Source: Escherichia phage vB_EcoM_SA21RB. Taken from it: 64,000 nucleotides of DNA. The stretch lies in sequence record OL960580; one strand, 5' to 3'. This document shows positions 32,596 through 63,523 of this stretch, piece by piece (position 1 is the stretch's first letter; every line of letters starts with the position of its first letter). The translations under genes and the position numbers were made by a program. Below the pieces are notes generated by a model, which made no database searches, had not been told where the DNA came from, and saw nothing but the letters and a program-made list of their open reading frames with translations.

Positions 32596-32625
32596 ATACT
32601 ATCACAAAGGAACCATACTGTAAAC
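32596..32625 (-). promoter_or_regulatory. T4-type early promoter (GTTTAC, 18-nt spacer, TAGTAT)
   Basis: Reverse complement read directly. Confidence 0.6.
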
Positions 32626-32642
32626 AACTTTGTGCAATCTTT

Positions 32643-32674
32643 GGAAAATAAAAAAGGACTCCCGAAGGAGTCCT
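32643..32674 (-). terminator. Rho-independent terminator after 30.9
   Basis: AGGACUCC-UUCG-GGAGUCCU hairpin followed by a U-run on the minus strand. Confidence 0.75.
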
Positions 32675-32678
32675 CAAC

Positions 32679-32855
32679 TTATGCTTTCTGCTTACCAAAA
32701 CGAGAAGCATCATCTCGAAGAACCGCACGTGCTCGACGCATGATCTTCTCAACAGTTTGATTGATACGAGAGTTCGACCCACGCTTGTAGCCAGCGCGTT
32801 TAGAATCACCAACTTTCTTTTCAACTGCTTTCTTTGCTTTAACTTGTTTTGCCAT
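32679..32855 (-). CDS. 30.9: Small basic protein (30.9 position)
   Basis: 58 aa from ATG 32855 (MAKQVKAKK); an upstream ATG at 32897 would give 72 aa. Confidence 0.6.
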   Translation of the reverse strand: MAKQVKAKKAVEKKVGDSKRAGYKRGSNSRINQTVEKIMRRARAVLRDDASRFGKQKA

Positions 32856-33251
32856 TATAAATTCTCTTTTAAATGAAAATGCAGGACTTATTGGCATTGC
32901 CTGCGCAAGCCCTCAAGGGGAACATAGGTTTTGGATATTTAACGACAGGATAACCATAAACCCGTCATCATACCTTATAGCTCTTATCTGTTGCACACCG
33001 TTAGCTTAAAGGTTCCGGGTCCGATTTCTCGAGGATAAGATATATACTGATGGATATATAGGCCTTGAGGCGTACTCCCGATTGGCCATCACCTCGGGGT
33101 AGCATGCACTTGCCGCTATAAGAATAACATTCAAGAGGTACACCGTAAAACTGCCGGGGTCTTAAAACTATAATGATTCGCAAATCATTAATCAGACAGT
33201 TCGACGGCTCCTCGTTTTAACTTCACACTAAGGCAGTGACTCTCCAATAAA

Positions 33252-33500
33252 TTATTTCAGTGTTACCACAAAGTGACGAACTGCTTTTCGTGCAGCAGAA
33301 GCCAGAGGCTTAGCATACTTAAGTTCATCTTTTTCCTGAAGCTCAGCAGCTAATGCAGTTTGAGCAGGATTCAGATGTTTGAAATAACGCAGGATTTCAA
33401 GAGCTTCGGCTTCAACATCAATAGATGCGCCATAGTTTTCGTGACCATTATTCCATGCGTTTCGTTGCAGTTCAAGAGCGTGTTGTAATTGTTTAATCAT
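33252..33500 (-). CDS. rIII: RIII, lysis-inhibition accessory protein (cytoplasmic antiholin)
   Basis: 82-aa ORF immediately downstream of gene 31, matching T4 rIII length and position. Confidence 0.7.
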   Translation of the reverse strand: MIKQLQHALELQRNAWNNGHENYGASIDVEAEALEILRYFKHLNPAQTALAAELQEKDELKYAKPLASAARKAVRHFVVTLK

Positions 33501-33639: not shown

Positions 33640-33647
33640 TATTTATA
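33640..33647 (-). promoter_or_regulatory. Late promoter box TATAAATA (minus strand) between gene 31 and rIII
   Basis: Reverse complement of plus TATTTATA; about 140 nt upstream of rIII. Confidence 0.4.
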
Positions 33648-33983
33648 TCACTTATAAAGACACGGAATAGCTTTATAGTGACAGGTAACGAATTTTTGTT
33701 TAATTTCTTTTGGCTGCTTAAGACCCAGAGCTACAAAAGGATGCGGAACGTTTCGAATTTGACCAACTGGAAGAGAAGTCAAATCACCAACTTCGCAGAA
33801 ACCTTCAGGAACATCAGGACCAACAGAGTGAATTACACACAGTTCAGGAACTTCACCTTGGACACGTTTACCGATAATAAGTCCTGATTCTGTAACTTCT
33901 TCATCACCGGCTTGTGCAGGTTCAGAAACTAAAATAACATATTCACCGACAGCACGAATTGGTAGCTGTTGTACTTCAGACAT
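33648..33983 (-). CDS. 31: Gp31 co-chaperonin (GroES-like)
   Basis: 111-aa ORF, N-terminus [16 protein letters not shown]; length of T4 gp31. Confidence 0.92.
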
Positions 33984-44540: not shown

Positions 44541-44769
44541 ATTGTTGTTCCGTTAAAACAGTAATATCATAGTAGCAATCAGAAGAAGTTTTAACTGTAG
44601 AAATTTTATTATCAAAATACTCACGGGTCATTTTATGAGTATAATATTTTTTGCCATAAATGATAATAGGCTGTTCTGGTCCTGGAACTTCTAACTCGCT
44701 TGGATTAGGAAGTGTAAAAAGAACGACACCAGAAGTATCCTTAAATCGTAAAATCATATATCCTCTCAA
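44494..44769 (-). CDS. nrdA.2: Hypothetical protein (nrdA.2)
   Basis: 91-aa ORF. Confidence 0.6.
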
Positions 44770-44780
44770 TTAAATTAAAA

Positions 44781-63221: not shown

Positions 63222-63304
63222 AGACCTTCCCCTTATGTTTCTGTTTGCGATTAGATTCTTTAAACGCTTTCTTCTTATCCTTATGGACAGAAGCTTTATT
63301 AAAA

Positions 63305-63523
63305 TTATGTTTTGCGACTAAATTGTTCATAGTGCTGAATTACCTCTCTCAAACATTTGCATGTGAATGAAAACTTTTTAGCTACACCACATTCAAATAT
63401 ATGTTCTCTTAAATCACGTGTGTCAGTATATCCCATCTCAACAATAAAATGCCGTATTAGATTTTTATCTTTATCATTGAGAGAATTAAAATAATCGGAT
63501 TTTGAATTAATTTCCCTGGCCAA
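63305..63523 (-). CDS. Hypothetical protein (arn.x); start uncertain
   Basis: Track start is TTG; first ATG gives 43 aa from 63436. Confidence 0.45.
   Translation of the reverse strand: MAREINSKSDYFNSLNDKDKNLIRHFIVEMGYTDTRDLREHIFECGVAKKFSFTCKCLREVIQHYEQFSRKT

Follow-up and report, generated by a model that had tools for sequence, protein, structure and literature searches.

The stretch analysed here (the window) comprises 64,000 nucleotides of Escherichia phage vB_EcoM_SA21RB (sequence record OL960580) and contains, on its minus strand, the gene rIII followed by the gene 30.9. The listed frame for 30.9 spans 32679–32897(−); T4 and T2 annotate a 58-aa protein starting with MAKQ, tblastn matches between genera begin at the same start, and the ATG at 32897, upstream of it, sits in a hairpin module. 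Because 30.9 starts at 32855, the rIII–30.9 spacer truly extends over 32856–33251 (396 bp). A preliminary description of this DNA, made from the letters alone, had placed an island without a credible ORF at 32898–33251 in an otherwise tightly packed genome. Its statement on coding capacity stands, as the spacer holds short ORFs only (33001–33183, TTG, 60 aa; 33006–33143, GTG, 45 aa; two more of 26–27 aa), none of the four matching Pfam or PHROGs, and its lower edge has to be moved from 32898 to 32856. The tight packing was borne out by crude ORF tiling, which left three uncovered stretches of at least 150 bp, one of them being this spacer.

The elevated G+C content noted earlier was also reproduced: 33001–33240 has 44.6% G+C, the 97th percentile of 240-bp segments (window mean 36.4%, sd 4.2), 32898–33251 has 44.4%, and the whole spacer has about 44% versus 36% for the window. 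The rise is concentrated in 32981–33115 (49.6%), with flanks of about 39–40%, and a single module of 149 nt at 32974–33122(−), hereafter called the core, accounts for the GC island. As had been remarked, the promoter grammar found elsewhere in the region is missing here; a consensus scan gave a single weak sigma-70-like match (33279–33251), overlapping the rIII end, and the late-promoter motif TATAAATA was not found in the spacer, its nearest occurrence lying upstream of rIII at 33647–33640(−). The transcription unit runs from promoters upstream of rIII, including this late motif, to the terminator past 30.9 (32675–32654), and no promoter or terminator belonging to the core itself was found in 32974–33122. 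The AT-rich hairpin TAATGATT-CGCA-AATCATTA was located at 33171–33190 exactly as described, where it caps a longer conserved hairpin, M1. The preliminary description had missed that this hairpin belongs to a separate module also present in T4, and that, compared with T4 and T2, the island represents an insertion/deletion polymorphism. The features of the locus are collected in Table 1.

Table 1. Features of the rIII–30.9 locus and of the RNA element in its spacer (positions in the window)
Feature	Position	Strand	Basis
Late-promoter motif TATAAATA, upstream of rIII	33640–33647	−	Motif scan
rIII, 82 aa, upstream gene of the unit	33252–33500	−	PHROG 1457, lysis inhibition accessory protein
M1, long irregular hairpin; tip is the AT-rich hairpin 33171–33190	33136–33213	−	RNAalifold and T4/T2 alignment
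Core, complete structured element of 149 nt with P1 as closing stem	32974–33122	−	Covariance model R1 and flank comparison
P1 5' strand CUUAUAGC, pairs with GCUAUAAG at 32974–32981	33115–33122	−	Perfect 8 bp in this phage
P2 arm	33061–33114	−	Base helix 100% paired, 1 compensatory; upper helix 98.6%, 7 compensatory
P3 hairpin UAUAUA/UAUAUA with 8-nt loop L3 UCCAUCAG	33041–33060	−	100% paired, 3 compensatory
P4 arm, 7-bp stem UCUUAUC/GAUAAGA enclosing a three-way junction (branches Pe, Pf)	32982–33040	−	Covariation counts
Pe, tetraloop GAAA/GUAA/UAAA	33021–33032	−	Branch of P4 three-way junction
Pf, 5 bp with bulged U, 15-nt loop GA.CC[variable]GCUAA	32995–33020	−	Branch of P4 three-way junction
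M3, hairpin GACGGG/CCUGUC, loop pairs downstream (GGUU/AACC) across linker CGUUAAAUAUCCAAA	32923–32971	−	By-eye reading
M4, two hairpins, U-rich run, 30.9 ribosome-binding region	32856–32919	−	T4/T2 alignment
30.9, 58 aa, very basic (entry includes terminator)	32654–32855	−	T4/T2 annotation and tblastn
Strong intrinsic terminator after 30.9	32654–32675	−	
Sigma-70-like early promoter TTTACA-N17-TAGTAT, after 30.9 terminator	32596–32624		Consensus scan

The covariance model R1 matched the window once, at 32978–33118(−) (175 bits, E=1e-46), on the gene-sense strand shared with rIII and 30.9; the extension of P1 beyond this match was taken from flank comparison among lineages. The core folds into a perfect four-way junction of P1, P2, P3 and P4, with no unpaired bases at the junction. 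The stem that closes it, P1, is weak and rich in A/U; it is represented in other lineages by 4–9 bp of differing sequence in the flank comparison (UUUAUAAGC/GCUUAUAAA, UGUAUAAUC/GAUUGUAUA, UCAUAUUAC/GUAGUAUGA and UAAAC/GUUUA), and three of its inner 4 bp covary. P2 rises from a 3-bp base helix (GGC/GCC) through a conserved internal loop (AAGUGCAU / CUCAAG) into an upper stem of 10 bp, which carries two bulges and is capped by the 12-nt terminal loop L2 (GGUGAUGGCCAA, 33082–33093); a C-G to U-A change in Yersinia phage fHe-Yen9-01 supports the pairing of the base helix. L3 bases 33048–33053 pair with L2 bases 33086–33091 to form a 6-bp kissing loop (a pseudoknot), which is 100% paired with three compensatory pairs (CG:19/UA:10, GC:23/AU:3/UA:3 and GC:26/AU:3), and this pairing implies that P2 must bend sharply at its internal loop. 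The P4, Pe and Pf helices (helices 6, 7 and 8) each show 100% pairing, and their compensatory pairs number 3, 3 and 2, respectively. About half of the core bases are invariant between genera, many of them in unpaired segments, namely the internal loop AAG.GCAU, the P4 three-way junction strand GCAACA (32989–32994) and the Pf loop GCUAA. In the segment GCUAA(C/U)GGUG(U/A)GCAACAGAU, just the two bracketed positions vary among 29 copies. Two other pairings were considered and rejected. A GAGGUG–CGCCUC pairing from an early hand model was dropped, as covariation places those bases in Pa and Pb, and a second pseudoknot between AAGUG of the 5' internal loop and CCUU of the Pf loop is 50–93% paired with no compensatory change and is unsupported beyond AAG/CUU.

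The structure was counted on 29 distinct copies, which come from Tevenvirinae of at least 10 genera. Across 45 base pairs in 8 helices, 99.5% of the cells are paired, and 25 pairs show compensatory changes. None of 500 column shuffles reached any of five measures, a control that overstates significance since the copies are related by descent. The slid-partner control, in which structures displaced by 1–3 columns pair in just 30–41%, is free of this weakness, as is the strand test, in which 19 G·U cells stand against 0 A·C cells in the same copies. Earlier versions of the structure count gave the same result. The centroid fold of 32974–33122 alone recovers P1, the P2 base, P3, P4, Pe and Pf, and the folding-energy z-scores of single sequences are unremarkable for the element (−1.44) and stand at −0.94 for the whole spacer; such energies are uninformative here. 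In most lineages, identity to the window sequence is 84–96% in the core versus 70–76% in rIII, and copies of the core differ by indels of 1, 2 and 7 nt. Judging from these alignments, the core is under purifying selection and not decaying. Comparative folding across homologous spacers, proposed earlier as a check, thus yielded covariation, and a structured non-coding RNA, one of the candidates originally put forward, is strongly supported by the covariation-backed pairs including the pseudoknot, the strand-specific G·U pairs and the conservation above that of rIII. That the minus strand encodes a genuine structured RNA with a function is, in our view, practically certain. A regulatory or recombination site had been suggested as well; at the DNA level such a site is disfavoured because of the G·U/A·C asymmetry, and what is left of that suggestion is regulation at the RNA level, which is possible.

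The core is accompanied by other structured modules. M1 forms a module apart from the core; its sequence is nearly the same in T4 and T2, and RNAalifold on 11 variants gave 25 pairs, five of which have compensatory changes. M3 is an H-type pseudoknot with a conserved linker and is near-universal in the spacer, T4 included. Its stem and loop partners change together (GGUU/AACC, AGUU/AACU, GUGAG/CUCAC, GUUGGUU/AACCAAC and CAAGGUU/AAUCUUG), as read by eye, without a formal count, from the spacers of 21 lineages. The hairpins of M4, CCCCUUGAGGG (32909–32919) and GCAGG...CCUGC (32880–32903), the latter followed by the U-rich run, are present in T4 and T2, and equivalent hairpins of different sequence occupy the same place in other genera. 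M4 weakly resembles the Rfam DUF2815 5'-UTR motif at a sub-threshold level (14.5 bits versus a gathering score of 41.2; E=2.6). M3 and M4 are kept in all T-even relatives and reach the 30.9 ribosome-binding site; the 30.9 Shine-Dalgarno sequence lies more than 100 nt downstream of the core. Rfam matches to Atu_C8 and Phe_leader at 32640–32723 were set aside as they merely reflect the 30.9 terminator.

About 400 genomes of T4-like phages carry the core; 400 phage records were matched at 401 places, and each of the 45 records listed has one such place. In every record or rIII-anchored locus whose context was examined, it lies between rIII and 30.9. T4 is devoid of the core, and T2 carries a different 45-nt filler at the same point. 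The T4 junction, in which GAAUGU is joined to GAAUGAUGA, resembles a microhomology deletion, and no target-site duplication was found at core junctions compared with T4. Close relatives differ, with the core present in VR26 and absent from VR20. JS98 and vB_EcoM_JB75 are further carriers. Its position within the spacer varies: it directly follows the rIII stop in some phages, M1 in this phage, and an M3-like module in Klebsiella phages, where core and M3 have swapped places. What flanks P1 on either side changes from one lineage to another, with M3, M4a or other hairpins downstream. The boundaries of the core are sharp and closed by a covarying P1 of lineage-specific sequence. In several lineages, the 3' strand of P1 abuts or overlaps an extended M3 stem (UAUGAUGA...) by 0–6 nt, which is the sole hint of an expression platform. 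The core is, as these comparisons indicate, an optional member of a set of RNA modules shuffled in the rIII–30.9 spacer.

Outside these phages, pattern searches of 185,579 GTDB genomes for a bacterial origin and blastn searches of E. coli genomes and plasmids gave no match to the core. Looser DNA patterns (ACGGTGNGCAACAGA and CGGCAAGNGCATGNNACC) pointed to about 190 viral loci, and when R1 was applied to the 165 newly fetched ones, all new matches were at chance level; one metagenome pattern match (L070) was judged spurious. Two other phage contigs carry, inside a 12-tRNA cluster, a piece of the rIII 3' end together with the first 13 nt of the spacer, which shows that the locus recombines with stable-RNA gene arrays.

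The Infernal/Rfam scan that had been recommended matched the core to no catalogued family. Rfam 15 (4227 models) in gathering mode gave no match in the whole window, and scans at E≤10 on 2.2 kb, 176 nt and 141 nt gave chance-level matches (miRNA, snoRNA and a sobemovirus FSE), none covering the core. Ribozyme families (hammerhead, twister, twister-sister, pistol, hatchet, HDV, hairpin, glmS and group I) gave none at E≤10, even with the search narrowed to 141–176 nt, and hammerhead core motifs could not be placed by inspection at the three-way junction. ARAGORN found no tRNA or tmRNA gene in the window. No match of the Intron_gpI type was obtained, and the core lies between genes, not inside one. 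Full-text literature searches with the element sequence and the rIII/30.9 intergenic region found no description, and the locus is absent from the text of a catalogue of structured RNAs in viruses published in 2023 (PMC10690425).

The overall design of the core is reminiscent of known RNAs. Lysine riboswitch (L-box), SAM-I and cobalamin aptamers have a variable P1, a multi-helix junction and invariant unpaired bases, and in lysine-type aptamers a long P2 bends so that its terminal loop makes a kissing interaction of about 6 bp with an adjacent hairpin loop. The core shares with these aptamers a P1 of variable sequence, the junction, a bent P2, kissing of about 6 bp and invariant unpaired bases. 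It has, as an aptamer does, covarying helices (45 pairs, 25 compensatory) together with invariant loops and junctions. However, it does not match their Rfam families at E≤10, its perfect four-way junction with a distal three-way junction differs from the five-way junction of the lysine riboswitch, and it is confined to phages, upstream of 30.9, without a conserved expression platform: the downstream sequence varies, the core/M3 order is reversible, and the 30.9 Shine-Dalgarno sequence is distant. T4 rnaC and rnaD (species 1 and 2 RNAs, about 120–140 nt) are likewise structured, T-even encoded and embedded in a longer transcript, but they occupy a different locus and show no homology. R1 with filters off on T4 69.5–74 kb (the tRNA/rnaC/rnaD region) gave at best 7.3 bits, outside rnaC/rnaD, and rnaC ends in a tRNA-like T-arm (GGGUUCGAAUCCC), which the core lacks.

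Two further likenesses were followed. The 10-mer GUGCAACAGA is shared with J11/12 in the specificity domain of bacterial RNase P RNA, is highly conserved and unpaired in both, and RNase P RNA likewise has a stacked four-way junction (P7–P10). This likeness is not beyond chance, with a local alignment score of 20 versus 16.6±2.1 for shuffles (46 of 500 as good); the 10-mer lies on opposite sides of the enclosed hairpins in the two RNAs, and RNase P gave no match in the Rfam scans. The pistol ribozyme has a hairpin loop that forms a pseudoknot with a downstream segment across a linker beginning GUUAAAUA, and M3 resembles it in its loop–downstream pseudoknot and linker start. Identification of M3 as a pistol ribozyme was rejected: no Rfam Pistol match was obtained at E≤10 on 141 nt, and unlike in pistol, no arrangement of P2/P3 and a G-U cleavage site could be drawn.

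PeSL cassettes, which combine a stem-loop with an early promoter, are intergenic and are shuffled, gained and lost between close T4-like genomes (PMC2839356, PMC4122927). The terminator and TTTACA-N17-TAGTAT after 30.9 (32675–32596) fit this description. The core resembles PeSL as a short intergenic module that is shuffled, gained and lost among such genomes. It differs, however, in being a single-copy, 149-nt multi-junction pseudoknotted element without a promoter-like site in 32974–33122, while PeSL are simple and occur many times per genome.

Taken together, the island is, as far as comparative analysis can tell, a 149-nt structured RNA domain inside the rIII–30.9 transcription unit. Our favoured explanation is that the core would fold autonomously in the rIII–30.9 mRNA as a self-contained, position-independent module with a compact tertiary structure, that its conserved unpaired bases would bind a specific partner (a protein, a small molecule or another RNA), and that this binding would alter the fate of its own transcript through processing, stability or the expression of downstream 30.9. 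We hold this combined reading, a structured minus-strand RNA acting in cis by putative partner binding, only tentatively, at somewhat less than even odds, and its cis component at about the same level. Consistent with cis action, the core lies in a unit with a late promoter upstream of rIII and a strong terminator only after 30.9, and its conserved neighbours M3 and M4 extend to the 30.9 ribosome-binding site. However, the missing expression platform is hard to square with a classical riboswitch, which would work through neighbouring sequences, and would fit a trans-acting RNA or a ribozyme equally well. T4 and T2 express rIII and 30.9 without the core, which makes any cis role dispensable. 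A stable RNA acting in trans is a possible alternative, if a less probable one. T4 rnaC, rnaD and tRNAs are cut out of longer transcripts by host RNases, and the core might similarly be excised from the rIII–30.9 transcript and serve as a decoy, a sponge or an RNP component, possibly against a host defence system, which would explain its optional and patchy retention. The self-contained fold with its ends joined by P1, the irrelevance of position in the spacer, the strong conservation of unpaired bases, the variable presence among close relatives (VR26 with, VR20, T4 and T2 without), the confinement to phages and the recombination of the locus with stable-RNA arrays all agree with this; the absence of a promoter or terminator of its own, the short A/U-rich P1, unusual for a long-lived RNA, and the lack of rnaC/rnaD homology and of a tRNA-like 3' domain do not. 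A new class of self-cleaving ribozyme, which would cut the polycistronic transcript between rIII and 30.9 and uncouple the fates of the two mRNAs, is improbable. Multi-helix junctions with loop–loop docking are typical of the natural hairpin, twister-sister and VS ribozymes, and the core has these together with a self-contained, position-independent, phage intergenic setting and many invariant unpaired bases in the internal loop and junction; its neighbour M3 also resembles the 5' half of pistol, with a hairpin, a loop pseudoknot and then GUUAAAUA. Against cleavage stand the lack of a match to any Rfam ribozyme family at E≤10, a length of 149 nt that exceeds most small self-cleavers and the lack of a nameable cleavage-site signature.

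More improbable still is processive antitermination of the put/EAR type, in which the RNA would bind the polymerase transcribing it to read through the hairpin-plus-U-run elements around 30.9. An intra-operon site upstream of M4b (32880–32903 and the U-run) and of the strong terminator would suit this idea, which needs no expression platform and leaves position free upstream of the terminators. It is purely positional, however: M4b, which has a stem of 5 bp and a loop of 14 nt, makes a weak terminator candidate, the same downstream elements occur in T4 and T2 without the core, and the core bears no resemblance to the antiterminator RNAs listed in Rfam. A decayed mobile DNA (MITE-like, or left over from an intron or homing endonuclease) or a DNA-level origin or recombination site without RNA function, which the preliminary description had in part envisaged, is very unlikely and already largely refuted. 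The sharp-ended insertion/deletion polymorphism relative to T4 and T2, the terminal inverted complementarity of P1 and the shuffling of modules in the spacer, a hotspot as known for PeSL cassettes (PMC2839356, PMC4122927), are what such DNA might leave behind. Yet the core is matched once in the window and is single-copy at one locus in the contexts examined; its P1 is lineage-specific and covaries instead of forming the conserved terminal repeat of a transposase substrate; its junctions bear no target-site duplication, and that of T4 looks like a microhomology deletion. There is also no Rfam intron or ribozyme match at E≤10, no protein-family signal in the spacer ORFs, and a strong purifying selection in the interior, with compensatory changes in 8 helices and the G·U-only asymmetry. 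A missed small protein gene, such as the 60-aa TTG ORF at 33001–33183, is hardly credible. Some GenBank records carry a 'hypothetical protein' there (e.g., COW86c_228 and several vB_EcoM entries), but this ORF runs through both the core and M1, two modules that are unrelated to each other in other lineages, and has neither a family match nor a Shine-Dalgarno sequence; moreover, the core copies differ by 1-, 2- and 7-nt indels, and their substitutions are pairwise-compensatory, not codon-periodic. The 'hypothetical protein' calls over the core stretch are probably wrong.

Complex maintained RNA folds with junctions, pseudoknots and invariant unpaired bases have usually proved to be ribozymes, riboswitches or RNP scaffolds, and new ones are rare. 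It is conceivable, though we consider it rather unlikely, that the core is the first known example of a new class of functional RNA restricted to T-even-type phages. It might act as a new self-cleaving ribozyme or a ligand-sensing aptamer. It could also be an RNA-based counter-defence or host-takeover factor, such as a decoy or sponge for a host protein or a signalling nucleotide; if so, its patchy retention would reflect the hosts met by each phage. T-even phages have been a model system for sixty years, and the core may have gone undescribed so far because the laboratory strains T4 and T2 lack it. The approximately 400 carrier genomes include many Klebsiella, Enterobacter and E. coli phages that are therapy candidates, and the core offers a well-defined, easily deleted target for studying an accessory phage RNA function. 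The whole rIII–30.9 spacer, that of T4 included, appears to be built from covarying RNA modules and would in that case be an overlooked array of cassettes, each a small structured RNA (M1, M2, core, M3 and M4), suggesting post-transcriptional control around rIII and the basic protein 30.9.

The genes of this T4-like (Tequatrovirus) genome segment lie on the minus strand in the order cd, 31.2, 31.1, 31, rIII, spacer, 30.9, 30.8 and 30.7. The preliminary description had noted a GC-elevated, ORF-free island of 354 bp (32898-33251) between rIII and 30.9. The ORF-free gap stood, but not its length: because 30.9 is annotated in both T4 and T2 as a 58-aa protein starting with MAKQ, and cross-genus similarity begins at the same residue, we set the 30.9 start at 32855 and the spacer at 32856-33251 (396 bp). 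Starting from an ATG farther upstream, at 32897, 30.9 would have 72 aa, but this codon falls within a hairpin of the M4 module and is probably unused. The spacer ORFs (60, 45, 27 and 26 aa) had no match in Pfam or PHROG. The G+C content was 44.6% in 33001-33240 and 44.4% in 32898-33251, compared with 36.4% for the window (about the 97th percentile), and the excess was concentrated in 32981-33115 (49.6%; flanks, 39-40%). The GC-rich, gene-free island is thus confirmed, as is the AT-rich hairpin at 33171-33190. In a crude ORF tiling, the only other uncovered stretches of at least 150 bp in the window were 44541-44780 and 63222-63506.

A blastn search of 50,697 phage records with the spacer matched 1011, only 179 of them with at least 80% coverage. 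Where the window has approximately 150 nt, both flanks are directly joined in T4 (...CUUGAAUGU followed immediately by GAAUGAUGACGGG...), and T2 has an unrelated filler of approximately 45 nt; neither phage carries the island, which is therefore an insertion/deletion polymorphism. The central 135 nt were 91-96% identical in Klebsiella, Enterobacter and Citrobacter phages and 81-86% identical in Erwinia and Serratia phages, with flanks unrelated to those of the window in both groups. The core alone matched 400 phage records, and the element lay between rIII and a 30.9 homologue in all records and loci whose context was read. A 20-nt invariant pattern was detected in contigs from IMG/VR (16) and from metagenomes (14 genuine), of which the large ones match T4-like genomes in size (approximately 160-178 kb); 185,579 bacterial or archaeal genomes lacked it, and E. 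coli genomes and plasmids gave no blastn match to the element. A covariance model built from element copies found one copy in the window; T2 gave no hit, nor did 25 of the 40 rIII-anchored loci or the 165 loci gathered by loose patterns. In several GenBank records, among them PP597396 (COW86c_228), MZ2340xx and MH355584, one or two 'hypothetical protein' CDSs are annotated across the element; these calls are probably artefacts.

Distinct copies were aligned, and a model was built by hand from the visible compensatory changes and then tested. The final alignment held 29 distinct copies from Tequatrovirus, Dhakavirus, Karamvirus, Kanagawavirus, Jiaodavirus, Roskildevirus, Tegunavirus, EcS1 and others. 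Across its 45 pairs in eight helices, 99.5% of cells were paired, both sides had changed in 25 pairs, and every helix had at least one compensatory pair; those in the P2 base helix and Pf came from the divergent copy of Yersinia phage fHe-Yen9-01 (97 bits). None of 500 column shuffles matched any of five measures, and sliding the structure by 1-3 columns left only 30-41% paired. Among the paired cells, 19 were G·U and none was A·C; selection therefore acts on the minus-strand transcript rather than on the DNA duplex or the other strand. The centroid fold of the window sequence recovered the same helices, with an unremarkable energy z-score (-1.44). The structured non-coding RNA suggested in the preliminary description, for which covariation was the proposed check, is thus robustly supported by comparative sequence evidence, in gene-sense orientation.

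Features of the rIII-30.9 region and its RNA modules (window positions unless a locus is named)
Feature	Position	Strand	Description
Gene 31	33648-33983	-	
Late-promoter motif	33647-33640	-	TATAAATA; upstream of rIII
rIII	33252-33500	-	
M1	33136-33213	-	~78 nt; long irregular hairpin just after rIII; tip is the AT-rich hairpin; also in T4 and T2
Element	32974-33122	-	149 nt; ends set by P1
P1	33122-33115 / 32981-32974	-	CUUAUAGC paired with GCUAUAAG
Four-way junction			P1, P2, P3, P4; zero unpaired junction bases
P2	33114-33061	-	3-bp base, internal loop, ten further pairs with two bulges, 12-nt loop
P3	33060-33041	-	6-bp hairpin, 8-nt loop
P4	33040-33034 / 32988-32982	-	ends in three-way junction with Pe and Pf
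Pe			tetraloop GAAA, GUAA, UAAA or UAAU
Pf			5 bp, bulged U, 15-nt loop with variable centre
M3	32923-32971	-	hairpin; loop pairs ~14 nt downstream across conserved linker CGUUAAAUAUCCAAA, giving an H-type pseudoknot
M4	32856-32919	-	two hairpins and U-rich run, up to 30.9 ribosome-binding site
30.9	32679-32855	-	58 aa
Intrinsic terminator	32675-32654	-	GAGGACUCCUUCGGGAGUCCUU plus U-run; the only strong one; after 30.9
Early promoter	within 32596-32675	-	TTTACA-N17-TAGTAT; directly after terminator, between 30.9 and 30.8
M2	T2 locus L003, ~1600-1645; L020, L025, L037		small module of T2-type phages

P1 marks the true ends of the element; in other lineages its sequence, 4-9 bp long and mostly A/U, is quite unlike that of the window, and it is kept only as a helix. 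Six bases of the P2 loop form a kissing interaction with six of the P3 loop, paired in 100% of cases and covarying at three positions; given this contact and the arm lengths, P2 has to fold back at its conserved, asymmetric internal loop (AAG.GCAU / CUCAAG). Approximately half of the element never varies among the aligned copies, and most of its invariant unpaired bases belong either to the internal loop of P2 or to the distal three-way junction. In the near-invariant 3' tract, comprising the GCAACA junction strand and GCUAA(C/U)GGUG(U/A)GCAACAGAU, the two bracketed positions are the only variable ones across all copies. The fold itself counts as shown; it is a compact, closed structure with many tertiary contacts.

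No Rfam 15 family matched the element at any scale searched, and, with spacer ORFs lacking protein-family matches, the earlier suggestion of a decayed intron or homing-endonuclease remnant was not borne out; the element is neither a remnant of a group I intron or endonuclease nor a tRNA or tmRNA. It is unrelated to T4 rnaC and rnaD, and a 10-mer that it has in common with RNase P RNA does not exceed chance expectation. A MITE-like element was dismissed: there is a single copy, duplications are absent, and the two ends covary. Indels of 1, 2 and 7 nt between copies, together with the pairwise substitutions, exclude a coding function.

The element itself contains neither a promoter nor a terminator and is therefore transcribed within the rIII-30.9 message. 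The terminator and early promoter after 30.9 form a textbook PeSL-type cassette, as in T4-type phages (PMC4122927); Rfam 'hits' to Atu_C8 and Phe_leader in this region are merely the 30.9 terminator. The remainder of the spacer likewise consists of RNA modules. M1 had five compensatory pairs among 11 variants and resembles an RNase III-type processing hairpin in shape. In M3, present in T4 itself (L075) and nearly all rIII loci (L020-L057), loop and partner change together, by eye, in nearly every lineage (GGUU/AACC, AGUU/AACU, GUGAG/CUCAC and others). We found no published description of M3; it superficially resembles the 5' half of the pistol ribozyme, but the Rfam Pistol model gave no match. 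The hairpin and ribosome-binding region at 32853-32913(-) had a weak, sub-threshold match to DUF2815 (14.5 bits, gathering threshold 41.2, E=2.6), an Rfam phage 5'-UTR motif. The extremely basic gp30.9 has no Pfam family and no solved relative; it is a plausible candidate RNA-binding protein and adjoins this cluster of RNA structures.

The spacer modules differ in order and combination between genera. The core follows M1 in the window and M3 in Klebsiella phages, whereas some phages have it straight behind the rIII stop; P1 adjoins or overlaps the M3 stem in several lineages. In T2-type phages, the small closed module M2 (...GCGUCAG-AAAAGGUUA-UCUGU-UAAG...) occupies exactly the site of the element, and in CC31-like phages it adjoins 30.9 within a stem formed by GGCUCUA/UAGAGCUC. 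The spacer thus acts like an array of RNA cassettes that can be swapped. Two IMG/VR contigs of 97 and 150 kb (L058 and L059, ~1120-2350) carry, inside a 12-tRNA gene cluster, a fragment of rIII (residues 43-82) with its stop codon, plus 13 nt from the start of the T4-type spacer (UUUAUUGGAGAUU), which looks like a recombination scar tying the rIII locus to the stable-RNA array of another phage.

The core was 84-96% identical to the window where rIII was 70-76% and 30.9 was 83-87% identical, 30.9 DNA being better conserved across genera than rIII. In the two remotest carriers, EcS1 and fHe-Yen9-01, core identity (67-72%) was approximately equal to that of rIII. The fast evolution of P1 and the covariation of the stems fit an element that is inherited vertically, strongly constrained and repeatedly lost, and not one that spread horizontally in recent times. 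In T4, the junction (GAAUGU followed by GAAUGAUGA) has the appearance of a microhomology deletion.

The element is dispensable and its place within the spacer is immaterial. Together with the compact closed fold and the invariant unpaired bases, these features suggest a self-contained module that would bind a specific partner. We tentatively favour an action on its own transcript, through processing, stability or 30.9 expression, because the element lacks its own transcription signals, stands among leader modules reaching the 30.9 start, and has a P1 that touches the M3 stem in several lineages. A classical riboswitch is disfavoured, as there is no conserved expression platform and the module order is reversed in Klebsiella phages. 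For the same reasons, we retain three alternatives. A processed RNA acting in trans is rather unlikely, though its decoy form would suit the patchy distribution; a new self-cleaving ribozyme is improbable, and a put/EAR-like antiterminator still more so.

Full-text literature searches found no description of the element sequence or of the rIII-30.9 locus. The element is a real and robustly supported family of structured RNA, apparently new to the literature, within a classic group of phages, and is of interest to both RNA and phage specialists.
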